64,000 nucleotides of DNA, from positions 1 through 64,000 of the IMG/VR virus record IMGVR_UViG_3300009136_000002. One strand, written 5' to 3'. The position numbers were made by a program, and so were the translations under genes. Under the pieces are notes generated by a model. It saw nothing but the letters and a program-made list of their open reading frames with translations, did not search any database and had not been told where the DNA came from. Positions within the stretch are counted from its first letter, which is position 1; each line of letters begins with the position of its first letter. Positions 19,337 through 51,220 of this stretch are shown piece after piece. The stretch is from a virus.

Positions 19337-19344
19337 GCAGGGGT

Positions 19345-19953: not shown

Positions 19954-19965
19954 AGAGGCCCACCG

Positions 19966-20805: not shown

Positions 20806-20978
20806 GTGAGGAGGAGATCGAGCGAATCACAACAGATTTACTTGTCCAGGGGTATGACCAAGACAGGATAATTGACCACCTGGAACGCATCAATGAACAG
20901 CGCGAGAAAAAAGAAGCCAGAGAACCGCAGCACGTTTCATCCGTTATGGATGAAGTTATGAAGAGGTTGAAACGGTGA
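20802..20978 (+). CDS. Hypothetical protein
   Basis: Overlap-coupled on both sides. Confidence 0.45.
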   Translation: MSEEEIERITTDLLVQGYDQDRIIDHLERINEQREKKEAREPQHVSSVMDEVMKRLKR

Positions 20979-31490: not shown

Positions 31491-32012
31491 GTGACAACAG
31501 CACTATACCGAATATCGTCCGGCGAGGTCGTCAAGATCAGCTTATCAGATCAGATGTGGGATGATCGAGCCCCTGCTTTTTGGGGAGTTCTGACAACCGC
31601 AGCTTATCCCGATGGCACTCAGGTTCGGCACATTGATCGTGAGTTGCGGGAGTTGGGCTTTGCTAAATTCGCCGATGTAGGCGGCAATATCGTCCGTAAC
31701 GCCGTTCAAGGCGAAATTGATACCTACGCTCCCGCCCAGGAAGATGATGAGAACCAGCAGGACGCTCTAGGCGCTGGCGGGCTATTCCTGGTTCATCCAC
31801 GAAACAGAAAGCTAATGACCGCCTTTGCCGACATTATCAAGGATGAAATGAATATCCTGCGTGGTTGGCTCACTCAATTCAAAGCAGATGTGGCTGCAGC
31901 AAATAATCTCTCTGATCTCAAAAGCAGCGTTGCAGCACAGCCGGATCTTCCTGATCGTACCCTGGCCCAACTGAAAACAGCAATTACAGCTCGAATAGAC
32001 AAGGACGACTAA
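31491..32012 (+). CDS. Hypothetical protein (possible fibre-associated/chaperone)
   Basis: First of three translationally linked genes ending in the giant Ser-rich gene. Confidence 0.55.
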   Translation: MTTALYRISSGEVVKISLSDQMWDDRAPAFWGVLTTAAYPDGTQVRHIDRELRELGFAKFADVGGNIVRNAVQGEIDTYAPAQEDDENQQDALGAGGLFLVHPRNRKLMTAFADIIKDEMNILRGWLTQFKADVAAANNLSDLKSSVAAQPDLPDRTLAQLKTAITARIDKDD

Positions 32013-32467
32013 TGGGCGTAACTAACCCGAATTACCCGACGATGGAGATCGCCCTGGCGATGGTTAATGCGCCGGATAACGCCGATGGCACAGAGCGCAT
32101 GAAAAAAGGCGATATTATTGCCATTCGCAAACCAGCAGATTTCATAGGATCGCAAGAAGGCAAAATCTTTCTCTGGCTACATATTGATGGGCCAGAAGAA
32201 AATGAATTTGCTGCCTTTGCTCAACAGGTCTTTGAACCTACTGATCCTGAAACTGGCGAAAGATTCGACAAGCGAAGATACGAAGTTCCCCTCGGACGCT
32301 TACAGGTTCTATATCCCGCGTTTAATCAATCAAGAGCAACAGATCCAAATGATTTTTATCAACCATTCTTGCTCATTGACAGCGAAGATTTTGAAATTGT
32401 TGCTGCAGATCCACCATACGCAGTTAGCGGCCTAGTCTTTGATAAGGCCATAGGAGATTATCTCTAA
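32012..32467 (+). CDS. Hypothetical protein
   Basis: TAATG coupling at both ends. Confidence 0.6.
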   Translation: MGVTNPNYPTMEIALAMVNAPDNADGTERMKKGDIIAIRKPADFIGSQEGKIFLWLHIDGPEENEFAAFAQQVFEPTDPETGERFDKRRYEVPLGRLQVLYPAFNQSRATDPNDFYQPFLLIDSEDFEIVAADPPYAVSGLVFDKAIGDYL

Positions 32468-35400
32468 TGGCTACCTCAAGACGAGCTGCCACAAATGAGA
32501 ATATCAGTACCTACGATAGCGGGGGTGGACAGGACTACTCAGCCCTTGCTACCTGGGAAGCTGCAACTGATATTGATCTCGTTACCGCTACTCAGTCTGA
32601 GGTCTTAGAGTGCTACGCTGGCTCTCACGATGATGAAGTTGTCATTGATGGCGCGACTACGAATACTTCGTATTTCAGGATAATCCGTCCGGCCTCTGGA
32701 GAGGGTCACGATGGCTACCCCCACCAGGACGGATCAGCCGCTTATTTTGTCACTACAACAAGCAACATAGATATGTTCTCTGTGGTTGAGGCTAACTGCC
32801 AACTTCAAGACTTGATAATGAGCCTCGATCAAGATGGTGGTAGTGCCTATTGCGCTGCCCTAGTAGGTAACAATCAGTATTTAATCGGCTGTCTAGCCAT
32901 CAATCCGGTCAACATTGGCGGTGATTCTAAGGGTTTTAGAGAGAATGGCGGCAGCGGCGATACGATGTATTACATCAACAGTATCGCCATAGGCTGTGAC
33001 GATGCTGCCTTTCAGTTCGATGCAGGAACAAGCTACGTCTATAACTGCCATGCCATTGATTCAGGTGAAGGATTCAATGAGAGTGGCGGTACGGTAATCT
33101 GTAAAAACTGCCTGGGTAATGGCACTACCGGATCGCAGGACTTTGATGGCTCTTATGATGCTGCGAGTGAATATAACTCATCAGGCGATGGCTCGGCCCC
33201 AGGTACAAACAGCCGGATCAATCAAACCTTTGCTTTCTCCGATGCTGGCAATGATGATTTCCGGTTAGGCTACACCGATGGTGGCGCTAGGAATTTTGGT
33301 ACTGATCTGAGCGCAGATGGCAATTTCGCTTTCGACGATGATATTGCTGATGGCGTTATGGGCGCGGGCAAAGCAGGAATAACACGCCCACAAGAATCAG
33401 TATGGGATATAGGCTTTCACGAGCGCACGGAAAGCTCTTCCAGCTCAAGTTCTTCATCCTGCTCTAGTAGTTTTTCATCCAGTTCCTTCTCATCTTGCTC
33501 ATCCAGTTTTTCTAGCTCAAGCTCATGCTCCTCGTCGTCCTTTTCTTCGTCCTCTTCCAGTTTCTCATCGTCCTGCAGTAGTTCATCGAGCAGTTTTTCA
33601 TCTTCATCTAGCTGTTCTAGTTCGTCTTTTTCGAGTTCGAGTTCGAGTTCGTCAAGCAGCTTTTCCTCTAGTTCAAGTTCCTGTTCTAGCTCGTTTTCTT
33701 CAAGCTCTTCCTGTTCATCAAGCAGCTTTTCGTCCTCTTGTTCGTCGAGTTCTTCATTTTCTAGCTCATCCTCTTCTTCACCTTCATGCGTTCCACCGGA
33801 TTGGCGCTGGGTTGATGGTTCTCAGCTAATTGTCGGCACGATAAATACTGGCGTTTTCTGTGATACCCATGCCTGTGATCTTACTGAGTATGTAATCAAT
33901 GAGCTTTCAGGTGTGGGTATTCCAGCTTTCGATCAAAGATTCACCTTTGAAAATGTACCAAAATCAACCCTTGATGTATCCATAACTGGCTACTACAGCG
34001 GCAATCCCGCTCATATCGTCAAAATAGCGATCTTTAATTACCAAACGCTCTTGTGGGATGATATGACAGGCGCAGCCCAGGACTTTCCATCACAGGCTAC
34101 GCCTTCTAACTATGTATTTCCGCTCACAGGCGCGGGAACACCGTCTGATTATGTGAGTGTTGGCAATCAGCTATCAATTAAGATCGACCATCGCTCTAAC
34201 GGATCAGCCGGACACACATTCCACATGGATTGTGTGCATCTGACCGATACCAGCTCTTCTAGCTCAAGTTCGTCAAGCTGCTCATCTTCCTTCTCCAGCT
34301 CATCGAGTTCATTTAGCTCTTCTTGCTCGTCAAGTTGCAGTTCGTCATTTTCATCTTCGTCAAGCTGCTCGTCCTCTTGTTCTTCAAGTTTTTCAAGTTC
34401 TAGCAGCTCTTTTTCATCGTCCTGTTCGTCGTCGAGTTTTAGCAGCTCATCGAGCTGCAGTAGCTCGTTTTCGTCCTCGTCGTCGAGCTGCAGTAGCTCA
34501 TCTTTTTCGAGTTCATCATGCTCAAGCAGCTTTTCCAGTTCGAGTTCGTGCAGCTCGTCATTTTCGTCGTCCTCGTCCTCATCCTTCTCCAGCAGTTCGA
34601 GCTGTTCTTCGAGTTTTTCTTCTTCTAGCTCATGCTCGTCGAGCTTTTCATCAAGCTCATCATGCTCGTCGTCGAGCTTTTCATCTAGTTGTTCGTCCTG
34701 TTCTTCGAGCTTTTCATCATGCTCTAGCTCTTCTTCATCTTCATTAGAATGTGGACAATGGATTGCTTACTTTGACGATTCAAGGTGGAACCCTGGGGGC
34801 ATTGTTGCCCCACCATTTGCCTGTACCTGGGATTCAGTAAATTGGGAATGGGATTCTGATCTATATAGCTCACAGCAATGGGCCTATTTAGAAACACAAG
34901 GCGCATGGCGGAGTGGATACAGGCCAAGCAAGTTTCGGATTACATTCACAGGCGGCTCTCCACTATATGCCTGTAATCTGAAAGATACTGCCGGAAATGT
35001 CATTGGCGGTACGAATTTCCCGACCAATTATTTCTCCGGTCAAGTTGAAGCAATTACTTTTTCGACATTCGATCTTAGATTTTTGGAATTACAGCATAAC
35101 GGCACAACTCAATTCCAAGTTACAAATATCGAATTCTTTACGGTATGTTCCTCTTCTAGCTCTTCGTCGAGTTCATTTAGCTCTTGTTCTTCATCATTTA
35201 GCTCTTCAAGTTCGAGTTTTTCATCATCGTCGTCTTGTTCATCGAGCTTTTCAAGTAGTAGCAGCTCATTTTCATCGAGTTCATCATGCTCATCGAGCTT
35301 TTCGAGTTCATCATCTTCGTTTTCGTCCTCGTCCTCTTCATTCTCATCGTCGAGTTCCAGCTACTCAAGTTCCTCATCCTCTTCTTTATCGTCCTCCTCT

Positions 35401-38400
35401 TCCTCTTCGTTTTCGAGCAGTTGCTCTTCATCCTGTTCGAGTTTTTCGAGTTCTAGCTTTTCATCATCGTCGTCCAGCTCCTCTTTTAGCTCAAGTAGCT
35501 CTTTTTCCAGTAGTTCTTCATCATCCAGCTCTTGTTCTTCCTCAAGCTCTTCTTTTAGCTCTTCTTGCTCAAGTAGCTCTTTTTCTTCATCTTCTAGCTC
35601 ATCGAGCTTTAGTAGCTCGTCGTCCTGTTCGTCGTCGTCCTTTTCGAGTTCAAGCTCTTCGAGTTTTTCGTCAAGCAGTAGCTCACGGAGTTCGTCATGC
35701 TCATCGAGCTGTTCAAGCTCTTTTTCATCGTCCTCGTTCTCGTCCTCGTCCTCGTGTTCATCAAGCAGCCCATCATCCAGCTCTTCCTCCTTCTCGTCGT
35801 CTTGCTCATCGTCCTCTTTCTCTTCGAGTAGCTTCTCGTCGTCCTCTTCGAGCTTTTCTTCTTCTTCCTGTAGCTCCTCGTTCTCATCGAGTTCGTCATG
35901 CAGCTCAAGCTCATTTTCTTCTTCTTCGAGCTGTAGTTCGTCGTCTTTTAGCTCGTCAAGTTCGGTTTCATCTAGCTCGTCATTTTCTTCTTCATCTTCT
36001 TGCTCCAGTAGCTCATTTTCGTCGTCAAGTTCATCATTTAGCTCGTCGAGTTCCTTTTCATCTTCCTGTTCATCTTCGTCGTCATTTTCCAGCTCAAGCT
36101 CTTCGAGTTTCAGCTCTTCGAGTTCGAGCTTTAGCTCTTCAAGCTCAAGTTTTTCAAGCTCTTGCTCCTCAAGCTCCTTCTCGTCCAGTAGTAGCTGTTC
36201 TTCGTCGTTTTCATCCAGTTCTAGCTGTTCTTCGTCATTCTCGTCCAGTTGTAGCTCTTCGTTCTCTTTTTCAAGCTCCTCTTCGAGTAGTTCGTTTTCA
36301 AGCTCTTCATCCTGCTCAAGCTCCTCGTTTTCGAGTTCTAGCTCCTGCAGTAGCTCCTCTTTCTCGTCGTCCAGCTCATCCTTTTCAAGCTCTTCATCAG
36401 AGAGCCTATCGTCGTCCTGCTCGTCCAGTAGCTCTCTCTCTGGCTCGGTTTCATCTTCGTGTTCGTCCTCTTCGTCCAGCCAATCTAGCTCAAGCTCAGT
36501 TTCATCTTCCTCTTCATGCTGTAGCTCCGTATCCTCTTCAAGCTCCTCTTTCTCGTCCTCATCCAGCTCCTTCTCGTCCTCAAGCTCGGTAAGTTCTTCG
36601 AGTTCGTGTGACTCGGCCTTCTCGTCCAGCTCATGCTCATCTAGCTGCAGTAGCTCATCGGAAAGCAGCTCTTGTCTGTCGTCCTCTTGCTCGTCGTCCT
36701 CTAGTTGCAGCTCTTCCTCATCGGCTGACTGTGACTCTATACCTGTCTATGGGAACAATGTCTTAGCTGTGTATCCTGATTGGATTTGGTACGACTTTGG
36801 TAGGGTAAAGGTCAATGAGGACAGCATTGAGCAAGTACACACGGATGCTAGAAGGTATGCTGGATTTGAATCACGCAAATTCGTTGCTGAATTCAGGGCT
36901 GGGGATCAAGATCCGCAAGGCATCGAACAGCGATTTCCGATAGGGAATCCGGCCTCTCTAGGCGTAACGAGAGTCTATCAACTCTCATTTTGGATCTATC
37001 CAGTTGATCGGACTAAGATCAGAGTAACCATCAAGCATGATGATGGGACTTTGAATGTTCATAACTATCCTGGTCTTACTCCGAATACCTGGAATCTGGT
37101 AAGCGATCTGGTCAACATTCAGAATAACACCAATACCGTGATCGCGTGGCACTCCGGCGCTACGGAATCCGGTACTTGGTATCTCGATGAGTTGGCATTG
37201 CGCTGGCTGGTCTGCCCTGGATCTTCATCGTCCTCGGAATCATCCTGTTCGAGTTCGTCTTGCTCCTCTTCCAGCGAATCCTCATCCTCACTCAGCTCCT
37301 CATCCTCTTGTAGTAGCTGTAGCTCGTGTGATTCGCTCTTCTCGTCCTCTAGCTCATCGTCGTCGTTCTCCAGCTCATCGTCGTCCTGTAGCTCTTCAAG
37401 TACCTGTTCCTCTTCATCTTTCTCCAGTTGCAGCTCCTCTTTCTCGTCCTGCAGCTCTTCGTTCTCTTCGTCGTCGTCGTCATTTAGCTCATCTTCGAGC
37501 TGCAGCTCTAGCTGTTCGTCCAGTTTCTCATCTTCGAGTTCATCTTTTAGCTCTAGCTCTTCATCTTTCAGTAGTTCTTGCTCCTCAAGCTCATCCAGTT
37601 TGAGCTTTAGCTCAAGTTGCTCGTCCTGTGATTCTGGCTTTTCTTCAAGCTCTTCTAGCTCTTCATTCTCAAGCTCGTCGAGCTGTTCATCGTCTTTTAG
37701 CAGTTGCTCCTCTTCCTACTCGTTCTCCAGTTCGAGTTCTTCATCCTGTGATTCAGCTTTCTCTTCCAGCTCTTCGTGTAGTAGCTCATCTTCATCGTCC
37801 AGCGAGAGTTTCCAGGTCTTACAGGGACAATACTTCTATCCTCAGAGCGATGAGGGTGGATATACGGTTACTCCTGTGGGATCTGGCTCTAGCATCGCAG
37901 ATCGAGTGAATAATGGCATCTTCGGGCCTGGATTCTCACCTGGGCCGGATGATACTAACGGATTCCAGGGCAGTAACGGTGCTTACGTTAGACTTAGACT
38001 TTCAAATCCAGTTTTCCAGGGAGAAGCGATAGAAGTTAGATGTACTGTAAGGGCGTTTACTTTCTTTGCTCCACCTGGACGAGTTGATGTAAGATTCGAG
38101 TCTAGCTTTGGTGTGTCACATGGCACACGCACAATATACACGATTACTACAGGTGTTCCGGCTGATTACACGGTAAGCTGGAGTCTTAATAAGACAGCCG
38201 CAGAGCTTACAGATGCACGGTTGAGGGTTGAGTGCCAAGATCCAAGCTGGAATGATCGAGTTACTGAGCTTGAATTACAGGTCATTATTGAAGGCTCATC
38301 TTCCAGTTCATGCTCTTCGAGTTCATCTTGTGATTCGGCATTCTCATCCTCCAGCTCTTCATCTTCGCTGAGTTCGGTGTCGGTAAGCAGTTGCTCATCT

Positions 38401-41400
38401 TCCTGTGATTCAGCTTTCTCATCGTCAAGCTCGTCGTCCTCACAAAGCTCTGTATCTATCTCATCTTCTTCATCCAGTTACTCTAGCTCTTGCAGTTCCT
38501 CTAGCTCTTGCGATTCGGCATTCTCATCTTCATCTAGCAGCTCATCGTTCTCCAGCTCTTCATCCTCGTTCTCAAGCTCGTCGTCCTGTAGCTCGTCGTC
38601 GAGCTGCAGTTCTTGTGATTCAGCCTTCTCCTCTAGTTGCTCGTCGTCGTCATTCAGCTCGTCGAGTTCCAGCTCCTCTAGCTGTTCATCGAGCTTTAGC
38701 TCTTGCTCTTCATCGTCCTGCAGTAGCTCGTTCTCTTCATCTTCGTGTTCGAGCTGTGATTCAGCCTTCTCAAGCTCATGTTCGAGTTCAAGCTCCTCGT
38801 TCTCATCGAGCTGTTCATCGAGCTTTAGCAGTTCTAGCCCATCATTATCGTTCTCATCCTGTAGCTCTTGCAGCTCATGTGATTCGGCTTTCTCATCGTC
38901 CAGCTCGTCGAGCTTTTCATCTTCGTCCAGCTCCTTCTCCTCCTCGTGTTCTAGCTCTTTTAGCTCAAGCTCATCTTCAAGCTGTTCATCGTCAAGTTTT
39001 TCATCGAGTTCTTGTAGCTCGTCATTTTCGTCAAGCTCAAGCTGCTCATCGTCAAGCAGCTCTTTTTCCTCGTCGAGTTCGTCTTTCTCAAGCTCGTCGT
39101 CGAGCTTTAGTTCAAGCTGTAGCAGCTCTTTCAGCTCTTCGAGTTCTTCATTCTCGTCGAGTTCAAGCTCTTTCAGCTCAAGCTGTAGCAGTAGCTCTTT
39201 CTCATCGTCGTCGTCCTTCTCAAGCAGCTCATCGTCGTTCTCGTCGAGTTCGAGTTCGTCGAGCTTTAGCTCCAGTAGCAGTTTCTCATCGTCCAGCTCT
39301 TCGTTCTCGTCAAGCTCCTCGTGTTCAAGCTCTTCGTTCTCAAGTAGCTGTTCCTCTTCAAGCTCGTCCTTCTCGTCGTCGAGTAGCTGTTCGAGTTCCT
39401 TCTCGTCGTCCTCAAGCTCTTTCTCAAGCTCAAGCTCAAATTGCTCATCTTCGAGCTGTTCATCTTCATTCAGCTCGTCGTCTTTCAGCTCGTCGTCATC
39501 GCGCTCTTCCAGCTCAAGCTCATTCTCTTCGAGTTCTTCCTCTTTCAGTAGCTCGTCAAGCTGTTCGAGTTCTTTCAGCTCTTGCAGCTCCTCGTTCTCT
39601 TCGAGTTCTGAGAGTTTTAGCAGCTCTTCTTCCTCGCAGAGTTCAAGCTCATCTTGCTCTGCCGGACAATGGATCTCCCAATTCGGTGCGCCATCTACCT
39701 TTGGCTGTGGTTTAGGTTTTGGTACAACCAAATGGTCAACAACTGGCGGCAATACTAGGCACGTTAATAGTTCACCTGATTACTTCGATGCTTGTGGCCC
39801 TGGCGGTTTTGGGCTGGCTGCTACTGGCGCATGGAAAACTGGCTACAGACCAACAAAAATCAGGGTCACGATTACAGGTGGTACTCTCTCTTGGACGCTA
39901 TCAGACGGTAGTGGAGTGATTGCCTCTGCCAGTAATCAGATAGGTTCGCCAGCGGCAGAAGTTAATATCGGCGGTCAAGTTAGCGATATTGTTAGTTTCG
40001 GGCCAGCCGATGAGTTTACTGGATGGCACATAGAGGATATTGAATTCTTCGTCTGCTCAAGCTCAAGCAGCTCTTTCTCATCCTGTTCCTCTAGCGAATC
40101 GTCGAGTTCAAGCTCTTCATCCTTCTCTTCAAGCTCTAGCTCATTTTCGTCCAGTTCGAGTTCTTTCAGCAGCTCATCCTCATGCTCATCTTCCAGCGAA
40201 TCATCTTCATCGTCGCCAGTTCCGTTCTTTACAGGCATAAATCCAGACGAAGATGTTGATATTACTGGCTGGACGCTTTCAGGTCAGGCTACAGCTTGGG
40301 AATGTACGGAGGATTTTAGTGCTGGAGATCCGGCGAGGAATGATGATTATGTCTATGCTTTAGCAGCCAATACCATAAAGCTCGGTTTTGAGAATCCTTC
40401 GTATGCTGGCAATTCCTATTATGTGAGAGTGAAATTTAGTGCGGCCTCCGGCGGGTCACAGGGTAGCCTGGGAATGTCGCTCTATGACGGTGCTAGTCAA
40501 ATAGGCAGCGAACAGATATTTGCTCCGCAGTTGCTACCTGGGACTTGGAGTGAATTTGAATACAGTTTCGCAACGACTAAGACCGCTGCAGAGCTGAGTG
40601 ATATGCGAGTATGGTTCCGGTGGATTAGTGGACTCTCGATCCTTGTCAGCTCGGTACAGATAGACATTTCCCTGGCATCTTCTTCTTCGTCCTCATTGTC
40701 GGAAAGCTCAAGCTCAGAGTCGGTAAGCTCATGCTCAAGTTCACACTCATTAAGCTCCAGTTCGTCGTGTGAATCTGGAGCATGGGTAGATGTTTTCACT
40801 CCTGAGTGGGTTTGCTCCGCTAACTGCTCATATAATGCTACCTTGGATCAGTTTGAGGAAGCTGGCCCTGGTATGAGCATACGGGAAAGCGGTACTTGGA
40901 ATGTGGGTTATCGCCCGATTAAAATCAGGGCTTACGGTCATACTCCTGGCGGTTGGGGCGAGTTGAATCTGAGAGATAATGTTGGCGGTGGAAACGTCAT
41001 TGCGAATGATGATGGCGGTGGTAGTGGCTATGTCGCTGGTACTCCGGTTGATATTGATTGGTCATACGGCATTGATATGGCTAGGATTGATTCACCGTGG
41101 GATACCCTAACCAATGTCCAATTCTTCATTTGTGGTTCGAGTTCAAGTAGCTCATTCTCATCCTGTAGCTCTAGCTTTAGCAGTTCCAGCTCTTCGTTCT
41201 CCAGTTCCAGCTCTAGCTCTTCATTCTCATCTTCCAGCTCTTCGTTCTCAAGCTCATCTTCCTTCTCGTCTAGCTCATCTTTCTCATCAAGCAGCTCTTC
41301 ATTCAGTTCCTCTTCGAGTGAAAGTCAGATTTTACAAAGCCAATTCATCCGGCCTGATGAAGATGTGAGTGCCAGCAACATTACTTTTGGCTCCGGTAGT

Positions 41401-42981
41401 TCTAGGTGGGATCGACTGAATGATGGAATTATTACCGGAACGCCTGACGACACAAATGGCGTTGGGGGTATGTTCTCCGATGATTTTCAGCGGAGCGGAT
41501 TTACGAATCCTTCTTTCCAGGGAACAAGCCTAGAGATTAAAGTTCATGTTCGCTGTAAAAACGCCGACAATGAACAGTTCGATATAAAATTGTACTCAGA
41601 TGGAAGCAGCCTTGATGGATCTAGCGGCCTAATTGCTGCAACGACGAGCTATGCCAATTACAGCCATAGTTTTTCAGTTCAAAAAACAGCGGCACAGCTC
41701 ACGAATTTGGAAGTAAGATTTAGTAGTTTCGCCAGCGTAGAGAGCCATGAATTATCAGAAATGGAAGTTGAAATTGTTAAGCCTTCATCTTCCAGTTCTT
41801 CTTCCTGTTCCAGTAGCTTTTCTTCATGCTCAAGCTCATTCTCAAGCTCTTCATCCTGCTTTTCTAGCAGCTCCTTTAGCTCAAGCTCATCATCTTTCAG
41901 TTCAAGCTCATCCAGTTCAAGCTCATCGCAAAGTTTCTCGACGTTTCAGACGCGAATATGGATGTATCCATCAATACCGGATGATTTAGTTGATGGATTT
42001 ACTTTCGGTGCTGGTAGTAACCCTGGCAACATCAATAACGGTATCTTTGGCCCTGGAGCATCACCGGATGATACGGCGGGAATAGGCAGCTCGTCGGACG
42101 GTTACTACGAAGCGGATCTATGGCCTAATGTCTTTTACTCAGGCCAAACAATAAATATCAAATCCCATTGGCGACTAAAAAATGATGGCCCTGGTACTGG
42201 CGATGTGAACGTGCAACTGCGTGACGGTGGTTCACCATACACTAATACAAATATCAATCCGACTACGAGTTGGGTGACTTACACCGTAGATCACAACCTA
42301 CAGTTGAATTGGATGGAAATTCAAAATATGCTCATGTGGATTGGCTTTGATGATACGGTCAACGCTGATCGACTTTCTGAGGTGGAAGTTGAGCTTATTT
42401 TTGGTAGTTCTTCAAGCTCCAGTTCATCCTCAGAATCTTGTAGCTCATCTTCATTCTCATCGTCCTCAAGCTCATCTTCATCAGCAGCTCCATTAACGAT
42501 ATTGAATCCTAATGGTGACTTCGATCATACATGGAGTGGTGCTACCGGATGGGATCAAATAAATGATTGGGATGATGGAGATCCAGCAAGGCAAAGCAGT
42601 ACGATTTTTGCCAGTACAGGCGTGACTGAAAAGACAGATTTTGAGAATCCTTCATTTTCTGGAAATTGCGAATCCATAGACGTAAAAATTGATGCCAGAT
42701 GGACTAATGGGCCAACATCGGTAGGAATCTCTCTGTACGATGGTGCAAGCATCATTGGTAGCGAACAAGTACAAGCTCTAACTCCAGCTTGGGCCGAATA
42801 CTCATGGAAATTTACAACTTCCAAAACGATGGAAGAGCTTAGTGATCTGAGAGTTTGGTTCCGATTCGCTCTTGGTGGACTCAATTTTGCTTTTATAGCT
42901 GCTTGTCAGGTGGAGATACATTTGCCAACTTCAAGCTCAAGCTCAAGCTGTAGTTCATCTTCCAGTTCAACATCGACTTAG
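32467..42981 (+). CDS. Giant (3504 aa) serine-tract protein: N-terminal beta-helix-like domain plus about 10 beta-sandwich domains separated by Ser/Cys/Phe tracts; probable virion fibre/appendage
   Basis: Uninterrupted 10.5-kb ORF, AGGAG RBS, TAATG coupling; DYSALATWEAA...WDIGFHE N-domain; repeated GYRP.K.R and KTAAEL.D.RV domains. Confidence 0.8.
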   Translation: MATSRRAATNENISTYDSGGGQDYSALATWEAATDIDLVTATQSEVLECYAGSHDDEVVIDGATTNTSYFRIIRPASGEGHDGYPHQDGSAAYFVTTTSNIDMFSVVEANCQLQDLIMSLDQDGGSAYCAALVGNNQYLIGCLAINPVNIGGDSKGFRENGGSGDTMYYINSIAIGCDDAAFQFDAGTSYVYNCHAIDSGEGFNESGGTVICKNCLGNGTTGSQDFDGSYDAASEYNSSGDGSAPGTNSRINQTFAFSDAGNDDFRLGYTDGGARNFGTDLSADGNFAFDDDIADGVMGAGKAGITRPQESVWDIGFHERTESSSSSSSSSCSSSFSSSSFSSCSSSFSSSSSCSSSSFSSSSSSFSSSCSSSSSSFSSSSSCSSSSFSSSSSSSSSSFSSSSSSCSSSFSSSSSCSSSSFSSSCSSSSSFSSSSSSSPSCVPPDWRWVDGSQLIVGTINTGVFCDTHACDLTEYVINELSGVGIPAFDQRFTFENVPKSTLDVSITGYYSGNPAHIVKIAIFNYQTLLWDDMTGAAQDFPSQATPSNYVFPLTGAGTPSDYVSVGNQLSIKIDHRSNGSAGHTFHMDCVHLTDTSSSSSSSSSCSSSFSSSSSSFSSSCSSSCSSSFSSSSSCSSSCSSSFSSSSSSFSSSCSSSSFSSSSSCSSSFSSSSSSCSSSSFSSSSCSSSFSSSSSCSSSFSSSSSSSFSSSSSCSSSFSSSSSCSSSFSSSSSCSSSSFSSSCSSCSSSFSSCSSSSSSSLECGQWIAYFDDSRWNPGGIVAPPFACTWDSVNWEWDSDLYSSQQWAYLETQGAWRSGYRPSKFRITFTGGSPLYACNLKDTAGNVIGGTNFPTNYFSGQVEAITFSTFDLRFLELQHNGTTQFQVTNIEFFTVCSSSSSSSSSFSSCSSSFSSSSSSFSSSSSCSSSFSSSSSSFSSSSSCSSSFSSSSSSFSSSSSSFSSSSSSYSSSSSSSLSSSSSSSFSSSCSSSCSSFSSSSFSSSSSSSSFSSSSSFSSSSSSSSSCSSSSSSFSSSCSSSSFSSSSSSSSFSSSSSCSSSSFSSSSSSSFSSSSSSRSSSCSSSCSSSFSSSSFSSSSSCSSSSPSSSSSSFSSSCSSSSFSSSSFSSSSSSFSSSSCSSSFSSSSSCSSSSFSSSSSCSSSSFSSSSSVSSSSSFSSSSSCSSSSFSSSSSSFSSSSSFSSSCSSSSSFSSSSSSSFSSSSSSFSSSSSSFSSSCSSSSFSSSSSCSSSFSSSSSCSSSFSSSCSSSFSFSSSSSSSSFSSSSSCSSSSFSSSSSCSSSSFSSSSSSFSSSSSESLSSSCSSSSSLSGSVSSSCSSSSSSQSSSSSVSSSSSCCSSVSSSSSSFSSSSSSFSSSSSVSSSSSCDSAFSSSSCSSSCSSSSESSSCLSSSCSSSSSCSSSSSADCDSIPVYGNNVLAVYPDWIWYDFGRVKVNEDSIEQVHTDARRYAGFESRKFVAEFRAGDQDPQGIEQRFPIGNPASLGVTRVYQLSFWIYPVDRTKIRVTIKHDDGTLNVHNYPGLTPNTWNLVSDLVNIQNNTNTVIAWHSGATESGTWYLDELALRWLVCPGSSSSSESSCSSSSCSSSSESSSSLSSSSSCSSCSSCDSLFSSSSSSSSFSSSSSSCSSSSTCSSSSFSSCSSSFSSCSSSFSSSSSSFSSSSSCSSSCSSSFSSSSSSFSSSSSSFSSSCSSSSSSLSFSSSCSSCDSGFSSSSSSSSFSSSSSCSSSFSSCSSSYSFSSSSSSSCDSAFSSSSSCSSSSSSSSESFQVLQGQYFYPQSDEGGYTVTPVGSGSSIADRVNNGIFGPGFSPGPDDTNGFQGSNGAYVRLRLSNPVFQGEAIEVRCTVRAFTFFAPPGRVDVRFESSFGVSHGTRTIYTITTGVPADYTVSWSLNKTAAELTDARLRVECQDPSWNDRVTELELQVIIEGSSSSSCSSSSSCDSAFSSSSSSSSLSSVSVSSCSSSCDSAFSSSSSSSSQSSVSISSSSSSYSSSCSSSSSCDSAFSSSSSSSSFSSSSSSFSSSSSCSSSSSCSSCDSAFSSSCSSSSFSSSSSSSSSCSSSFSSCSSSSCSSSFSSSSCSSCDSAFSSSCSSSSSSFSSSCSSSFSSSSPSLSFSSCSSCSSCDSAFSSSSSSSFSSSSSSFSSSCSSSFSSSSSSSCSSSSFSSSSCSSSFSSSSSCSSSSSSFSSSSSSFSSSSSSFSSSCSSSFSSSSSSFSSSSSSFSSSCSSSSFSSSSSFSSSSSSFSSSSSSSSFSSSSSFSSSSSSFSSSSSCSSSSFSSSCSSSSSSFSSSSSCSSSFSSSSSSFSSSSSNCSSSSCSSSFSSSSFSSSSSRSSSSSSFSSSSSSFSSSSSCSSSFSSCSSSFSSSSESFSSSSSSQSSSSSCSAGQWISQFGAPSTFGCGLGFGTTKWSTTGGNTRHVNSSPDYFDACGPGGFGLAATGAWKTGYRPTKIRVTITGGTLSWTLSDGSGVIASASNQIGSPAAEVNIGGQVSDIVSFGPADEFTGWHIEDIEFFVCSSSSSSFSSCSSSESSSSSSSSFSSSSSSFSSSSSSFSSSSSCSSSSESSSSSPVPFFTGINPDEDVDITGWTLSGQATAWECTEDFSAGDPARNDDYVYALAANTIKLGFENPSYAGNSYYVRVKFSAASGGSQGSLGMSLYDGASQIGSEQIFAPQLLPGTWSEFEYSFATTKTAAELSDMRVWFRWISGLSILVSSVQIDISLASSSSSSLSESSSSESVSSCSSSHSLSSSSSCESGAWVDVFTPEWVCSANCSYNATLDQFEEAGPGMSIRESGTWNVGYRPIKIRAYGHTPGGWGELNLRDNVGGGNVIANDDGGGSGYVAGTPVDIDWSYGIDMARIDSPWDTLTNVQFFICGSSSSSSFSSCSSSFSSSSSSFSSSSSSSSFSSSSSSFSSSSSFSSSSSFSSSSSSFSSSSSESQILQSQFIRPDEDVSASNITFGSGSSRWDRLNDGIITGTPDDTNGVGGMFSDDFQRSGFTNPSFQGTSLEIKVHVRCKNADNEQFDIKLYSDGSSLDGSSGLIAATTSYANYSHSFSVQKTAAQLTNLEVRFSSFASVESHELSEMEVEIVKPSSSSSSSCSSSFSSCSSSFSSSSSCFSSSSFSSSSSSFSSSSSSSSSSQSFSTFQTRIWMYPSIPDDLVDGFTFGAGSNPGNINNGIFGPGASPDDTAGIGSSSDGYYEADLWPNVFYSGQTINIKSHWRLKNDGPGTGDVNVQLRDGGSPYTNTNINPTTSWVTYTVDHNLQLNWMEIQNMLMWIGFDDTVNADRLSEVEVELIFGSSSSSSSSSESCSSSSFSSSSSSSSSAAPLTILNPNGDFDHTWSGATGWDQINDWDDGDPARQSSTIFASTGVTEKTDFENPSFSGNCESIDVKIDARWTNGPTSVGISLYDGASIIGSEQVQALTPAWAEYSWKFTTSKTMEELSDLRVWFRFALGGLNFAFIAACQVEIHLPTSSSSSSCSSSSSSTST

Positions 42982-43018: not shown

Positions 43019-43564
43019 ATGTACGATCTCAACTACTACGAAAATTTACTGAGGATTCACAGCGCCACGGCAGAGCGGATCAGCGACATTCGCTGGCATT
43101 TTATAGAGCAAGGTGTTTACTTGCCAGCCGGACGAGGATGGCGCTCAAAGTTGAAGGTGCTGGACTATGGTTCCGGTGTCGGCTGGTTTCGAGCATGGCG
43201 ACCCCCCTGGGCTGACGTATGGAGCTATGATTTGGGCCTGTATCCACAAACAGGCATCGACATGGTTCCCTATGACGTAACGTGCTTTTGGGACGTTCTG
43301 GAGCATATTAGGGACTTTCAGGACATAGAGCCGATCCTGATGCTCTCCAAGAAAGTTGCTTGCACGGTTCCGATCATACCGGAGGAAGGCCTGAGTGAAT
43401 GGAAGCATTTTAAACCAGGGGAACATTTACATTATTTCACTAAGGACTCCCTGATCGCGCTCTTTGATAAGTTTGGATTCAGCCCTATGGTTGAAAATGA
43501 TTGTGAATGTCCTCCACGCAAAGATGTAACAACCTTTTTGTTTGCTAATCGCTGGAGGCCATAA
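43019..43564 (+). CDS. Class I SAM-dependent methyltransferase
   Basis: VLDYGSGVG, YD, WDVLEHI, P.EHLHYFT. Confidence 0.85.
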   Translation: MYDLNYYENLLRIHSATAERISDIRWHFIEQGVYLPAGRGWRSKLKVLDYGSGVGWFRAWRPPWADVWSYDLGLYPQTGIDMVPYDVTCFWDVLEHIRDFQDIEPILMLSKKVACTVPIIPEEGLSEWKHFKPGEHLHYFTKDSLIALFDKFGFSPMVENDCECPPRKDVTTFLFANRWRP

Positions 43565-43791: not shown

Positions 43792-44698
43792 AAACGGACA
43801 GAGCCCTGGTGACGTATTGACCATGACTAGGGCTGTCGCCGACTTTGCTAACTCATATCCTGATTTCCTGATCGACGTAAGAAGTCCCTGTGCCGAAATT
43901 TGGGAGAATAATCCCTGGCTGCATCCACTCGATGAAAACGACGAAGAGGTGGAACAGTTCGACATCGGCTATGATGCCATTCACAACAGCGGCGTTACAG
44001 GGATACATTTCGCTGACGGATTCAGGCTGGATATTGAGAAGAAGCTCGATGTCAAGATCCTACCAACAGGGATCTTGCCGGAGCTTTGGGTTAGCGATGA
44101 AGAGAAAAGCTGGATAAATCAGGCTGAGGTTGAGTTCGGCTGGAAAGACAAATTCTGGCTCCTTAATGCCGGATCTAAGCCGGACAATGCACTCAAGCAA
44201 TATCATCGCTGGCAAGAAGTTGTAGACATTCTCACACGGTTCTTTGACAACAGAATAAAGATAGTCCAGATAGGCCATGAGGCCCATCATCATCCAGACC
44301 TTACGGGTGTCCTTTCCCTGGTAGGCAAGACGGATCTCCGGCAACTCATACGATTATGCCATTGGTCTGAGGGAACAATAGGCCCGATCAGCTTTCAATT
44401 CGTCCTGGCCGCAGCCCTGCAGAAACCTTATGTGTGCGTGGCAGCGGGCAAAGAAGGTGTGCGCTGGCATCTATATCCTCATGGACGCTATCTTTACACA
44501 AATGGCTGTCTTGAATGCTGTGAATGGGATGGGTGCTGGCGCGGTGGGGGTCACACTAAATGCCTGACGATGGAGAATGGATCTCCCAAATGTTTCACGA
44601 TGATTAAGCCCTACATGATCGCAGATGCCGTGAAGATGTACTACGAAGGGGGCAAGCTAAACTTTGATTGGCGAGTACCACGAGAAGAAACTGGTTGA
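43772..44698 (+). CDS. GT-B glycosyltransferase, GT9 (heptosyltransferase)-like
   Basis: SPGDVL.MT, EIWENNP, VQIG, LVGKTDLRQLI, LAAAL.KP. Confidence 0.8.
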   Translation: MRKIILRNGQSPGDVLTMTRAVADFANSYPDFLIDVRSPCAEIWENNPWLHPLDENDEEVEQFDIGYDAIHNSGVTGIHFADGFRLDIEKKLDVKILPTGILPELWVSDEEKSWINQAEVEFGWKDKFWLLNAGSKPDNALKQYHRWQEVVDILTRFFDNRIKIVQIGHEAHHHPDLTGVLSLVGKTDLRQLIRLCHWSEGTIGPISFQFVLAAALQKPYVCVAAGKEGVRWHLYPHGRYLYTNGCLECCEWDGCWRGGGHTKCLTMENGSPKCFTMIKPYMIADAVKMYYEGGKLNFDWRVPREETG

Positions 44699-45428
44699 GT
44701 ACCTTGAGCCAGGGCAGCGTGTCCTGATTCGATTCGGTCATGGCTGGGGCGATACCCTGATGTTCATGCCGATCTTCGAGCGGCTGCAGGATCTCTACGC
44801 TGATGTGCATTTCGATCTGTATCTCGAATGTGGTCAGGAATGTATTTTCGAGTCATTTCCGGATAAAGAGGGGCCGGATCACGATTACGTTTTCCACCTT
44901 GATTTTCCTATGTCGGAGGGATCTGGACTCACTAAAGCGCAGAAATGCTGCGTGGATGAGCTTGGAATTGATCCTTTATCTGAAATTGCGGCTTTGCCGA
45001 AGAAACCATCGCCGATTGTTTCAGTCCATTTTCAAGGTACGGCCTTACCGAATTCGGTCAACTGTCCAGAGGAGGTAGCGCGAAAAGTATGGCAGGAGGT
45101 TTTGGATGCTGGAAAAATTCCCGTTGAAGCCCATTTTAGGCATTTGTTTCACAATCCTGCTAATACTCGCTATGGGTTTATTGATCGTCATGTACGGTAT
45201 TGTAATGCTAATTTGTCTAATCTCATCGGTCTTATACAAGTATCTTTCGCCTTTGTCGGAATTGCTTCTGGCCCTCTTGTTACTGCTCTATCAGTCATGC
45301 CGACAAGGACGTTTTACCTGGAGAGGAATCACAAGATTACGGATTATGTAAAGCACCTGGACGTTAAGGCAGTTCATGTAGATCACTACGAGGATGGGAT
45401 GGTGAGTGAATGGCTGACTACGCTATGA
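44664..45428 (+). CDS. GT9-like glycosyltransferase
   Basis: HGWGDTLMFMP, VHFQG, FVGIASGP..TAL. Confidence 0.65.
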   Translation: MIGEYHEKKLVEYLEPGQRVLIRFGHGWGDTLMFMPIFERLQDLYADVHFDLYLECGQECIFESFPDKEGPDHDYVFHLDFPMSEGSGLTKAQKCCVDELGIDPLSEIAALPKKPSPIVSVHFQGTALPNSVNCPEEVARKVWQEVLDAGKIPVEAHFRHLFHNPANTRYGFIDRHVRYCNANLSNLIGLIQVSFAFVGIASGPLVTALSVMPTRTFYLERNHKITDYVKHLDVKAVHVDHYEDGMVSEWLTTL

Positions 45429-46300
45429 TTTTCAGTACCACTAGAGGCTATATGCCAGGAACGAATGGCATTTTAAATGCAATGGAATACTACGGCATGA
45501 CTCACATTGATGTCTATGTGATCCAGGTAAATTTCGAGCTAGATCAGGAATACAAAGATCAATGGCCTAATGTGAATTTCGAGGTCATTGACCCTACCAT
45601 GTGGCACGAGCCAAAGAATGCCGGATGGTATTGCCGATTCGCACCACCCTGGAGAGCCATTCAGCTACTCGATCAGTACAAGGTCGTCAACATTCACGGA
45701 GCCGATGTCTGCCCGCTTAAAGATGTCACCATGTACTACGACTTGTCGGCAAAGACAGGCCAGATCATTGTCGGCACAAATGAGCAAGGCTGCGCTGATT
45801 ATTCACGAATGACTGAGAAGGGGAAACACCCTTACGTCCATACCTGGATGATCCCTTACGCTGATATACCGTGCTTTGTTACTCGACATCAAAAGGCGGT
45901 TTTGGAGCTGGTTCTTGATCTTCACCGGAGGCCTGATTGCACCTTGAGTTGGATGGATGCACTCAACTATGCCTTGCGGGATCTCGAACAAGAGCCCATT
46001 GCGCTCCCTGGCAACCTGTGGGTTTTCAATCTTAGCTCCCAGGGCAAGGTGAGGAGAGAGGGAGACAAGATTTTCTATCTCGACCAGCAAATGAACCAGT
46101 TTCACAGGAAATACTGGATTGCTAACTTTTGCAGAAAGTACCTGGCTCCGAATAGTCCTAACTGCGGCCACAACCACCTGATCTTTAATCAGATGTGGAA
46201 TTTTTTCAATAGAGAATGTCGAGTACAATGGCTAGAGGGCTTGGAAGTATGGGACGGAGTACATCAGTCACAATCATTGGAACACGGCCCCAATTCATAA
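45410..46300 (+). CDS. GT-A fold glycosyltransferase-like protein (GT8-like)
   Basis: Y.PG..G.LN.M, GAD at the DxD position, MDALNY; paralogous to 47279-48193. Confidence 0.55.
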   Translation: MADYAMIFSTTRGYMPGTNGILNAMEYYGMTHIDVYVIQVNFELDQEYKDQWPNVNFEVIDPTMWHEPKNAGWYCRFAPPWRAIQLLDQYKVVNIHGADVCPLKDVTMYYDLSAKTGQIIVGTNEQGCADYSRMTEKGKHPYVHTWMIPYADIPCFVTRHQKAVLELVLDLHRRPDCTLSWMDALNYALRDLEQEPIALPGNLWVFNLSSQGKVRREGDKIFYLDQQMNQFHRKYWIANFCRKYLAPNSPNCGHNHLIFNQMWNFFNRECRVQWLEGLEVWDGVHQSQSLEHGPNS

Positions 46301-47289
46301 AAGCAGCCTCAATCAACTTCGATGAAGATAAGGTCGATAACTTCCTGGTTCACACAGGCCAGCATTACGATTATGGTCTGTCCAGGCAGTTTTGGAAACT
46401 GAGAAAGAAAGAGCCGGATCAGGTACTCAACTGTGCCAGCCATGATCCGACGATCCAGATGAAGTTGATGCTGGATCAAATCGCGCCGATCCTGATCCAT
46501 AGGAAACCCGACTATGTGATCGTGGTCGGCGATTGTAATTCTACCCTGGGTGGTGCTTTAACTGCGGAGCTACTGAAAATTCCGGTCATTCACATAGAGG
46601 CTGGATTAAGGTCGTTCGATTGGACTATGCCGGAGGAAAGAAACCGTTACCTGACGGATCACCTAGCCCAGGTGAATTTCTGTGTGACAGCCGAAAACAA
46701 GAGGCAGATCGAGAGGGAAACACATTTCCCCAGGCCCATGATGCAGCAATGGTATGGCTCACCGCCGAATCATAACTATGTGGTCGGTGACACGCTTTAT
46801 GATTCGATGATGTCCTTCATAGATGAAACCGTACCGATGCTGGGTGACTATTTCCTGGCAACAGTACACAGGGAAGCGAACGCAAATGAGCATATTGAGG
46901 AAATTCTGGATGCCCTGAATTCACTCGAACAGAGGGTCATTTTCCCCAAGCATCCACGCATTAAGCTGGAGAAAGAATATAAGAATATCGAAGTATTGAA
47001 ACCAGTTGATTATGTCACGATGTTAAGCCTACAGCTTGGCGCTGATATGATCTTTACCGACTCCGGCGGTGTTGGCCGTGAAGCTGTGTGGCTCGGCAAG
47101 CGATGTGTGATGCTGAGGGGAAATACTGAATTCCCTGAATTTGTTCATTCAGGCCATGTGGTACTGGCTGGTCACAGCAAGGAAGCTATAGTCGATGCTC
47201 AATTCGCGCATTGGCCCTCTGAGCCCTGCGATCACGGACAGGATGGCAACGCTGGAGCGAGGATAGCGGAGGTTATCTATGGGCTCTAA
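46249..47289 (+). CDS. wecB: UDP-N-acetylglucosamine 2-epimerase (non-hydrolysing)
   Basis: GTRPQFIK, VHTGQHYD, VVGD.NST, HIEAGLRSFD..MPEERNR, ATVHR..N, HPR, TDSGG, LR..TE. Confidence 0.92.
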   Translation: MGRSTSVTIIGTRPQFIKAASINFDEDKVDNFLVHTGQHYDYGLSRQFWKLRKKEPDQVLNCASHDPTIQMKLMLDQIAPILIHRKPDYVIVVGDCNSTLGGALTAELLKIPVIHIEAGLRSFDWTMPEERNRYLTDHLAQVNFCVTAENKRQIERETHFPRPMMQQWYGSPPNHNYVVGDTLYDSMMSFIDETVPMLGDYFLATVHREANANEHIEEILDALNSLEQRVIFPKHPRIKLEKEYKNIEVLKPVDYVTMLSLQLGADMIFTDSGGVGREAVWLGKRCVMLRGNTEFPEFVHSGHVVLAGHSKEAIVDAQFAHWPSEPCDHGQDGNAGARIAEVIYGL

Positions 47290-48471: not shown

Positions 48472-48950
48472 TGGCTAAACCTAGAGACAGCGCAGGGAAA
48501 AAGAATTCCCATGCACGGCAACACCTGTTCCTTCAAGATCACGTTGTAGACGAGATCAGGATTAAGGAAATCGCTGAGAAAAGCGGTGTTGACTATGATC
48601 GCGTTGCCAAGTTACTGCGGGAATTGACAGGCCAGGACATTTCCAAGGAGCTACTGAAAAGCTCCTGGGATCTCATTAGGGTGCTACTTGCCGAAGCTGT
48701 AGAGTTGCGTGATCGAGTGATGATGATGCACATTATCAACGAGATCATAAAGCGCAAGGAGCCCAAACAGAGCCAGATCAAGACTGAGGGTGTAGTCGAT
48801 CACAAGGTCATGGTACTGGTGCAACAATTCGAGGATAAAACCCTTGAGGATCTCATCGCAAGAAGAGAATCTATTACCGTGGGAGAAGGAAAAGCTCGAC
48901 CAGCTAGAGCTATCCCTGATCGACGCGGTACTGGAAAAGAGAAATCCTGA
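48471..48950 (+). CDS. Probable terminase small subunit
   Basis: HTH IKEIAEKSGVDY; immediately upstream of and overlapping TerL; TAATG start. Confidence 0.6.
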   Translation: MAKPRDSAGKKNSHARQHLFLQDHVVDEIRIKEIAEKSGVDYDRVAKLLRELTGQDISKELLKSSWDLIRVLLAEAVELRDRVMMMHIINEIIKRKEPKQSQIKTEGVVDHKVMVLVQQFEDKTLEDLIARRESITVGEGKARPARAIPDRRGTGKEKS

Positions 48951-51208: not shown

Positions 51209-51220
51209 GAGTTGACAAAA

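Follow-up and report, generated by a model that had tools for sequence, protein, structure and literature searches.

A giant serine-rich gene followed by a sugar-related cassette

The window analyzed here is a stretch of 64,000 nucleotides (nt) from a virus, corresponding to positions 1 to 64,000 of the IMG/VR record IMGVR_UViG_3300009136_000002, a phage genome of 75,155 bp rated complete by CheckV. It contains an open reading frame (ORF) for a giant modular protein of 3504 residues, in which runs of serine punctuated by phenylalanine and cysteine (S/C/F tracts) join globular domains, and a cassette of sugar-related genes lies directly downstream. Both belong to a plus-strand block that starts at about 29.6 kb and comprises, in order, small genes, the upstream genes u173 and u151, the giant gene, the cassette, head and packaging genes, and tail-like genes (Table 1). 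The ORF had been placed at 32467-42981 on the plus strand in an initial annotation made from the sequence alone; these coordinates are exact, and the frame is open throughout. The same annotation had assigned the gene to the late region and noted the absence of a signal peptide. Both observations stand: the gene has the orientation of the terminase, portal, and capsid genes and lies 5.9 kb upstream from them, and its N-terminus is polar, with no hydrophobic signal segment visible on inspection.

Composition and punctuation of the serine tracts

Serine accounts for 1522 residues (43%) of the full-length protein, Phe for 249, and Cys for 149. Sliding-window segmentation delimited nine S/C/F tracts that total 1568 residues, or 45% of the protein, as compared to an initial estimate of about half. 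The two longest tracts, first proposed to extend over positions 35149-36723 and 38296-39660, were delimited at 35155-36711 and 38314-39642. The nine tracts comprise 1250 Ser, 148 Phe, 114 Cys, and 56 other residues, with very few occurrences of Thr (1), Arg (2), Pro (2), Ala (8), Gly (2), Asn (1), and Tyr (3). The neutral expectation was derived from the one-step non-synonymous neighbors of the Ser codons actually used in the tracts, which gives expected substitution shares of 17% for Thr, 15% for Arg, 12% for Pro, 12% for Ala, 10% for Cys, and 5% for Phe. Phe and Cys together represented 82% of the non-Ser tract residues (262/318) versus 15% expected (binomial p = 4.6e-158), in agreement with the reported rarity of the other one-step neighbors of Ser codons. 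The recurrent spacing of Cys and Phe was also recovered, with peaks at 3, 5, and 6 Ser: the mode was 6 Ser for gaps between two Phe residues and 3 for gaps from Cys to Phe, and gaps from Phe to Cys had modes of 3 and 5. Gaps of less than 2 residues represented 1.2% of the total versus 31% in shuffled tracts, and Phe and Cys were never adjacent. The motif CDSAF recurs close to module borders. These results indicate selection on the regular Phe/Cys punctuation.

All six Ser codons are in use in the tracts, 131 to 257 times each, and adjacent identical Ser codons are depleted (12.3% versus 17.4%, z = -4.2, 0/2000 shuffles). Tandem Repeats Finder detected only short and weak arrays with periods of 15-33 nt, and the longest exact repeated word within the 10.5-kb gene is 21 nt. 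A DNA slippage repeat was rejected as the source of the alphabet since the codons are scrambled. Neutral drift via switching between the Ser codon families, which predicts Thr as often as Cys, was also rejected (1 Thr and 114 Cys in the tracts), as was coding in another reading frame or on the other strand, the long ORFs of the other frames being confined to the tracts.

Globular modules and orthologues

The eleven globular parts of the protein fall into four classes: D0, type C (D1 and D3, which are weakly related), type A (D2, D5, and D7), and type B (D4, D6, D8, D9, and D10). The module array is old since paralogous modules share merely 21-46% identity. None of the eleven domains had a significant match in Pfam or PHROGs. 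A construct combining D6 and D7 was modelled with AlphaFold2 from 23 aligned modules (paralogues and orthologues), with a predicted local distance difference test (pLDDT) score of about 90 for the type B module, about 78 for the type A module, and 30-46 for the Ser-rich linker. Foldseek searches with this model retrieved carbohydrate-binding modules (CBMs) of families CBM22, CBM4, CBM6, and CBM61 (E 3e-6 to 1e-4, TM up to 0.63 on target). Based on this model, which covers types A and B, with type C outside it, eight of the ten modules are predicted to adopt a CBM-like beta jelly-roll fold. The only CBM match at the sequence level was sub-threshold (PF02018, E 0.095).

D0 matches 2296 representative clusters at E<=1e-3 and was found in 63 viral loci. 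Many of its relatives are stand-alone proteins of 320-380 residues, and certain giant proteins contain as many as 19 copies; poly-Ser was present in none of the best 150. A D0 family profile built from 40 members matched the fucoidan lyase FdlA (E 9e-5) and the Klebsiella phage K1 capsule lyase/depolymerase (7W1C and 9K4A; E 1.3e-4 and 2e-3), and 5 of the 40 members matched PF13229 (Beta_helix). No Pfam catalytic family matched D0. Judging from these matches, D0 is most likely a right-handed beta-helix of the depolymerase/lyase type, with a putative activity of this kind.

Two orthologues were found in IMG/VR phages, with 3699 residues in G001 (65.8 kb, rated complete) and 3680 residues in G002 (38.6 kb). 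Both keep the S/C/F alphabet. The three proteins are syntenic over their N-terminal half (D0, C, C, B; 60-96% identity), with shuffled modules in the C-terminal part. One orthologue (L019) contains an additional Laminin_G_3 lectin module, which is also present in the poly-Ser protein of another phage, and the other orthologue contains an additional module of no known type. The presence of binding-type modules, predicted in the initial annotation, is thus in line both with the jelly-roll model of types A and B and with the Laminin_G_3 module. At equivalent positions, tract lengths are 87-108, 132-185, and 489-588 residues with conservation of the composition, and the window carries at one such position 155 + 519 tract residues around an extra D2 module. 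The C-terminal sequence consists of a Ser run and a final Thr-Ser-Thr just before the stop codon in the window (42946-42978), in both orthologues (L019:11290-11367 and L020:11150-11227), and in two distant proteins (L051:7507-7992 and L057:7909-9150). This shared end may be a conserved C-terminal signal.

The downstream glycosyltransferase cassette

The initial annotation had called on adjacent glycosyltransferases by comparison with serine-rich adhesins. A glycosyltransferase cassette is indeed present directly downstream from the giant gene, with a GT9-fold enzyme (GT9a) near TibC, WaaF, and WaaC, a GT8-like enzyme, and a WecB-like epimerase among its products. The model of GT9a (pLDDT 89.5) retrieved WaaF (8e-14) and TibC (3e-11) in Foldseek searches. 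In VIA superpositions, Z scores were 24.5 for 3tov (GT9, Veillonella), 21.8 for WaaF, 20.4 for residues 96-393 of TibC, and about 20 for WaaC, versus 12.9 for the next fold class (epimerases), and the superpositions on GT9 structures span 243-266 residues. GT9a is therefore predicted to adopt the two-Rossmann GT-B fold of GT9 enzymes (heptosyltransferases) over its whole chain. Sequence comparisons detected nothing in Pfam, including PF01075, even at E 10, and the match to NCBIfam RfaQ was 16.7 bits versus a cut-off of 467. No PDB entry was matched in sequence searches using four cassette proteins or the GT9a family profile. Because no sequence family was matched, membership of GT9 rests on the fold and on the COG-based names assigned by JGI, which are ADP-heptose:lipopolysaccharide (LPS) heptosyltransferase for many of the 364 homologues at about 60-69% identity. 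Four cysteines (C249, C255, C264, and C274) are invariant in the GT9a family and C250 is conserved at 90% or more. They are located in a lower-confidence loop of the C-lobe, at positions roughly matching the Cys4 finger region of TibC (339-370), with a spacing that differs from that of C339, C342, C358, and C370.

Assignment of the second gene, GT9b, to the GT9-like enzymes is a lead only. The GT8-like gene is conserved in G001 (66%) and G002 (24%). No match was obtained for three cassette genes in PHROGs, Pfam, and NCBIfam. The presence of WecB suggests that N-acetylhexosamine chemistry is involved too. Among 22 GT9-anchored loci, the methyltransferase was present in 21, directly upstream from the GT9-like gene in about half of them and 2-5 kb upstream otherwise; x304 accompanied GT9a in 16, GT9b in 14, the GT8-like gene in 12, and WecB in just 3. 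The methyltransferase (PF13489) is fused to the GT9a homologue in P0165, P0226, and P0241 (504-529 residues). At two other loci (L066:11174-13804 and L067:15358-17988), GT9a is part of an 877-residue ORF located directly after Glu/Gln-punctuated poly-Ser ORFs.

Association of GT9a with poly-Ser ORFs in other phages

To assess the pairing of the cassette with Ser-rich proteins, loci were retrieved with the GT9a family profile (57-66% identity) and duplicates were removed. Association was scored within 10 kb of GT9a as the number of Ser-tract residues in one ORF, D0-anchored loci lacking GT9a being used as controls. ORFs with at least 40 Ser-tract residues were present in 14 of the 17 GT9a-anchored loci versus 4 of the 48 controls (Fisher p 2.7e-8). 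With a threshold of at least 100 residues, the counts were 9/17 and 1/48, respectively (Fisher p 6.6e-6). Ten contigs of D0 phages with no poly-Ser seen at the D0 locus yielded no GT9a. The pairing therefore extends across phages.

The residues that interrupt the Ser runs differ in these phages: Pro/Leu after S8 with a strict period of 9 (L036:6317-8425), Phe after S6-10 (L047:16541-19015), Glu after S4 or S2 (L049:3-950), and Thr/Asn/Glu after S3/S6 (L039:7059-9383). S-C-F-Y tracts ending with TST were found in L051 and L057, and S-C tracts with beta-propeller-like repeats in L045. The punctuation alphabet looks lineage-specific. Since other lineages use other residues, it is improbable that the enzyme universally requires Phe and Cys; they could set the acceptor register, act as cohesive stickers, or form cross-links.

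One 140-kb phage contig (L045:5911-8883 and 17181-20889; L092:2862-8775) carries the GT9a cassette, a D0 gene that stands alone, and several ORFs rich in Ser and Cys. In these ORFs, Cys recurs every 3-4 residues, and repeats of the type IYKHDGFSSTI.D, which resemble beta-propeller blades, are interspersed. In the partial 35.9-kb contig of L059, where no GT9a was found, a 307-residue D0 ORF is followed by a single stop and by a 1369-residue ORF comprising 997 Ser and Leu/Val/Glu punctuation (L059:9980-15010). This pair may represent a D0 poly-Ser protein that is split or made by read-through.

The upstream three-gene module and genomic context

Homologues of u151 were found upstream from a D0 gene in 23 other phage loci, mostly ending a few bases from the D0 start, and homologues of u173 were located just upstream from the u151 homologue in 15 other phage loci, and also in G001-G003. 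None of the 58 u151 homologues bears a name, and the upstream genes had no match in PHROGs, Pfam, or NCBIfam. Because this arrangement recurs in loci whose head genes have no detectable similarity to each other, u173-u151-D0 is, as judged from sequence, a mobile three-gene module, the third gene of which appears to have grown by 3200 residues in this lineage. Its conservation is suggestive of a protein of the tailspike or tail-fibre kind.

Downstream from the cassette, a SU10-type adaptor gene separates the P22-like portal and capsid genes, and the tail-like genes (58.5-65.6 kb) are followed by two further giant paralogous proteins. Megablast searches of the late region and tblastn searches of GT9a against 50,697 GenBank phages gave no match. 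The nearest relatives of the capsid protein, from phages Mx8/Mx9 and from Brucella and Bradyrhizobium phages, are at most 30% identical, so the capsid gives no indication of the host. In GTDB genomes, the GT9a profile detected only three contigs of metagenome-assembled genomes (11-52 kb, 62-65% identity to GT9a), which, from their size and identity, are probably phage DNA and do not point to a host either.

Table 1. Coordinates of the features of the window and basis of their designation.
Feature	Position	Strand	Basis or remark
Upstream gene u173	31491..32012	+	Stop overlaps u151 start; no family match
Upstream gene u151	32012..32467	+	Stop overlaps giant gene start
Giant poly-Ser modular protein P0001	32467..42981	+	ORF list and translation; 3504 aa
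D0, N-terminal beta-helix-like domain, aa 1-327	32467..33447	+	Clusters, profile, PF13229
S/C/F tract 1, 108 aa	33448..33771	+	
D1, type C module	33772..34266	+	Orthologues 96% and 80% identical; weakly like D3; no family match
S/C/F tract 2, 155 aa	34267..34731	+	
D2, type A module	34732..35154	+	blastp to D5 and D7; type A modelled as beta sandwich
S/C/F tract 3, 519 aa, longest	35155..36711	+	Strain-level indel variants in other metagenomes
D3, type C module	36712..37239	+	Weakly like D1
S/C/F tract 4, 185 aa	37240..37794	+	CD(S)(A/L/G)F motifs
D4, type B module, predicted CBM-like jelly roll	37795..38313	+	
S/C/F tract 5, 443 aa	38314..39642	+	Recurrent CDSAF; bridged by independent contigs
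D5, type A module	39643..40062	+	
S/C/F tract 6, 45 aa	40063..40197	+	
D6 (type B) and D7 (type A), modelled construct	40198..41142	+	AlphaFold2, Foldseek
S/F tract 7, 55 aa	41143..41307	+	
D8, type B module	41308..41799	+	
S/C/F tract 8, 42 aa	41800..41925	+	
D9, type B module	41926..42420	+	
S/C/F tract 9, 16 aa	42421..42468	+	
D10, type B module and C-terminal Ser run ending TST	42469..42978	+	
S-adenosylmethionine methyltransferase	43019..43564	+	PF13489, E 4.4e-10
GT9a, predicted GT9-fold glycosyltransferase, 308 aa	43772..44698	+	Model, Foldseek, VIA superposition
GT9b, second GT9-like gene (lead)	44664..45428	+	Atlas features: viral 'glycosyltransferase' clusters, one PF01075 cluster
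GT8-like (GT-A) glycosyltransferase	45410..46300	+	Atlas features 0.97; structure TM 0.70-0.74 to PF01501 clusters
WecB-like UDP-GlcNAc 2-epimerase	46216..47289	+	PF02350 9.2e-71; TIGR00236 2.2e-58
Cassette gene x304	47279..48193	+	Weak DUF1647 match, E 0.1
Terminase	48844-50484	+	
P22-like portal	51212-53221	+	
Capsid protein	56316-57263	+	

A glycosylated fibre as the favored interpretation

With moderate confidence, we propose that the giant protein serves a podovirus-like phage of marine sediment as a very long, modular fibre or adhesin that binds glycans, and that its Ser linkers are O-glycosylated by the phage cassette. The gene would be translationally coupled to u173 and u151 and apparently expressed with the late genes, giving rise to a putative N-terminal beta-helix followed by ten small beta-sandwich modules, of which types A and B would be CBM-like, with nine Ser tracts of 16-519 residues between the modules. 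The cassette would O-glycosylate the Ser runs in the cytoplasm, GT9a probably adding the first sugar to Ser, as TibC and AAH do on autotransporters, and the remaining enzymes extending or decorating the glycan. The glycosylated tracts would form extended, protease-resistant bottle-brush spacers, enabling many weak glycan-binding modules to sweep a large volume and to bind with avidity. At about 0.3 nm per residue, 1568 tract residues correspond to a contour length of about 0.4-0.5 micrometre.

Several observations weigh against this proposal. The near absence of Thr in the tracts fits a Ser-specific enzyme, yet it is unlike mucins. The similarity of GT9a to TibC (Z 20.4) does not exceed its similarity to the LPS heptosyltransferases (Z 21.8-24.5), and GT9a lacks the N-terminal beta-barrel of TibC. 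Pfam scans of the phage ORFs detected no heptose-synthesis families, so a heptose donor would come from the host. The CBM-like fold is generic and does not point to a ligand. D0 starts at about residue 20, leaving no recognizable tail-attachment domain, the protein has no PHROGs tail-fibre match, and its gene is located upstream from the terminase gene, outside the tail block. Finally, poly-Ser exists without GT9a in a complete 44-kb phage (G008, SPSE-type) and in a partial contig with a 1369-residue Ser ORF (G005).

Poly-Ser-type proteins on contigs devoid of GT9a would be expected if the tracts were unmodified flexible linkers, as in polysaccharide-degrading enzymes of Cellvibrio, Saccharophagus, and Teredinibacter, the cassette then serving, for example, to modify host surface glycans, other virion proteins, or a sugar nucleotide pool. 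A beta-helix and CBM-like modules joined by Ser runs do resemble such polyserine-linker enzymes, and the Ser linker was modelled as disordered. We nonetheless regard this explanation as unlikely. GT9a and four partner genes are strongly tied to poly-Ser ORFs across phages with unrelated head genes, tracts of up to 519 residues extend well beyond the needs of a linker, and the exclusion of Thr, Pro, Gly, and Ala combined with the regular Phe/Cys spacing is unexpected of a mere spacer.

The protein, glycosylated or not, might also act away from the particle, as a soluble or lysis-released depolymerase or adhesin conditioning capsule, biofilm, or sediment matrix for the progeny. The lack of a tail-attachment domain or tail-fibre family match would fit such a role, and so would the packaging and head module that lies between the giant gene and the tail genes. 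The resemblance of D0 to polysaccharide lyases points the same way, as does the occurrence of D0-type modules in tandem in giant proteins that do not look phage-like (for instance P0004, encoded on a 7-Mb contig). Release would however require lysis in the absence of a signal peptide, the u173-u151-D0 module present in many phages looks like a structural cassette, and stand-alone D0 proteins are common in phage contigs, as tailspike-like proteins are. A role off the particle seems distinctly unlikely to us.

We consider it less probable still that the Ser/Phe/Cys tracts are themselves functional, forming a cross-linked sticker-and-spacer mesh or an adhesive through cohesive Phe contacts and through Cys, by way of disulfides, thioethers, or the binding of metals or minerals; glycosylation would then be secondary or lacking. 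The even spacing of Phe and Cys, their non-adjacency, and the retention of the alphabet in the orthologues despite tract-length turnover agree with this explanation, and single punctuation residues at fixed periods in other lineages (S8-P/L, S8-F, S4-E) point to a polymer property. Yet Pfam scans of the ORFs revealed no modifying enzyme for Cys or Ser besides the sugar cassette, Glu, Pro, or Thr punctuation in other lineages is ill-suited to a cohesive or cross-linking role in general, and the habitat is often anoxic sediment, in which disulfides are less likely. Disulfide cross-linking of the tracts, considered in the initial annotation, is speculation.

The late region of the phage is near-identical in marine-sediment and marine metagenomes from ten studies (2017-2025); the sequencing runs listed for it included none from RNA. 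Contigs from other studies span positions 36546-38430 and 38319-40080 at about 99% identity, and tract 5 is bridged by the independent contigs X7 record 19 (38319-40080) and X8 record 25; this check drew on four sequencing runs, in which parts of the gene have no cover. Thus, the ORF is extremely unlikely to be an assembly artefact or a non-coding low-complexity region, an outcome envisaged at the start and plausible in principle since short-read metagenome assembly of low-complexity sequence is prone to error and many alternative joints exist in Logan contigs over 33.6-36.5 kb, as independent metagenome contigs bridge a long tract, a single 10.5-kb frame stays open through eleven divergent globular domains, the codons are scrambled with no repeat longer than 21 nt, and orthologues exist in two further phage contigs. 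In the 33600-36500 region, contigs of 2024 marine metagenomes contain joints that skip 173 to 4690 nt, located inside tracts 1-5 or spanning from one of them to another. These joints fit strain variants in tract length or module content; short low-complexity matches could also yield them.

Comparison with known systems

TibC is a GT9-like enzyme that hyper-O-glycosylates Ser residues in the cytoplasm; it contains a Cys4 iron finger (C339, C342, C358, and C370) and requires its N-terminal beta-barrel (residues 1-97) for activity (PMC4358343). The system of the window resembles the bacterial autotransporter heptosyltransferase (BAHT) pairs of E. coli (TibC-TibA and AAH-AIDA-I; PDB 4RAP/4RB4) in combining a soluble GT-B enzyme of the GT9 fold with a very large candidate acceptor. 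It differs in that residues 1-299 of GT9a align only to residues 96-393 of TibC, without the beta-barrel, and in that GT9a is as similar or more to WaaF, WaaC, and 3tov. In place of autotransporter beta-helix loops, a homopolymeric Ser tract of a phage protein is the presumed acceptor. The BAHT donor is ADP-heptose, whereas Pfam scans of the phage found no heptose genes, and GT9a sits in a five- to six-gene cassette with the methyltransferase, the GT8-like enzyme, and WecB.

The very large serine-rich repeat adhesins of Gram-positive bacteria (SRRP; Fap1, GspB, SraP, and PsrP) are O-glycosylated by neighboring glycosyltransferases and form a stalk that presents a binding region (PMC2952246). 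Their hallmarks are an SRR1-BR-SRR2 layout with S-x dipeptide repeats, an extended signal peptide of a special kind, export via SecA2/Y2, anchoring by LPXTG, and GtfA/B enzymes of family GT4 (PMC2952246). None of these was found in the phage protein, which has a polar N-terminus, homopolymeric Ser runs, a ...SSSSSSTST end, and a neighborhood of GT9, GT8-like, WecB, and methyltransferase genes. Repeats of the S-x type were only detected in more distant relatives (L007 and L080), L080 being a complete contig without GT9a. The interpretation initially built on these adhesins is thus supported in part: the binding modules, the glycosyltransferase cassette, and the pairing of this cassette with poly-Ser are in its favor, and the likeness to serine-rich repeat adhesins is an analogy only, with none of their defining features.

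In 2004, Howard et al. reportedly described the polyserine linkers of modular carbohydrate-active enzymes (CAZymes) from Cellvibrio japonicus, Saccharophagus degradans, and Teredinibacter turnerae. These linkers run to tens of residues, in secreted bacterial enzymes with signal peptides. The similarity with the giant protein lies in the junction of CBM-type jelly rolls to a catalytic-type domain by Ser runs and in the marine or polysaccharide-rich habitats. In contrast, the window encodes a phage protein with no visible signal peptide, no CAZy catalytic family, tracts of up to 519 residues, regular Phe/Cys punctuation, and a glycosylation cassette next to it.

Freeman et al. (2023; cited in PMC12582341 and PMC11256854) are said to have shown that mycobacteriophage glycosyltransferases O-glycosylate the virion proteins of these phages, on short C-terminal extensions of capsid and tail-tube subunits. 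Both cases involve phage-encoded glycosyltransferases in or beside structural genes. The mycobacteriophage enzymes belong to other families, and giant poly-Ser proteins are not known from that system. For beta-helix tailspike depolymerases, the likeness lies in the weak yet significant D0 profile matches to the Klebsiella K1 lyase and in the frequency of D0 genes in phage contigs. The giant protein differs from tailspikes by the lack of an N-terminal adaptor domain, by the 3200 residues of tracts and binding modules that follow D0, and by the location of its gene outside the tail block.

By analogy, the system would work like BAHT pairs and SRRP adhesins and looks like polyserine-linker CAZymes, and it fails membership of all three. 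No account of a pairing of poly-Ser with GT9 was found in literature searches covering polyserine, serine-rich proteins, or virion glycosylation in phages.

To our knowledge, protein O-glycosylation by GT9-type enzymes is known so far only from a few autotransporter adhesins. If the tracts are glycosylated by the cassette, phages would have a new and apparently widespread route for decorating their own proteins. Some phages would also spend about 14% of a 75-kb genome on a single half-micrometre multi-lectin appendage, which would bear on host finding in sediments and biofilms. As a natural design for a low-complexity protein that is both long and genetically stable, Phe/Cys-punctuated poly-Ser encoded by scrambled codons is unusual. 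We give little credence to a bolder generalization, a widespread phage system of half-micrometre bottle-brush appendages made by a cassette of five to six genes with a Cys-finger GT9 enzyme at its head. In it, homopolymeric Ser tracts would be hyper-glycosylated, the punctuation of each lineage (Phe/Cys at fixed spacing here, and Pro/Leu, Glu, Phe alone, or Cys alone in others) would set polymer stiffness, cohesion, cross-linking, or metal binding, and the product would be a lectin-studded tentacle capturing hosts or particles in sediment.

Other features of the genome

No tRNA genes were found. The giant ORFs encoding 3063 residues (window 241-9432, plus strand) and 3134 residues (L010:2585-11989, corresponding to genome positions 65585-74989, plus strand) are mutual paralogues. 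They have the same first 14 and last 10 residues, share a GHKL-like NELLQN..DAMPD box and a HEY(S/T)HK motif, and, should the genome be circular, would lie next to each other, directly after the tail-like genes. Both are possible ejected internal proteins. The match of G001 to one of them is limited to 61 residues. On the minus strand, the region 14966-19336 contains an ORF with Ro60 TROVE and Ro60-vWA domains, along with a RecT and a YqaJ exonuclease, as detected when 50 ORFs were scanned with Pfam. Ro60 is an unusual protein for a phage to encode.

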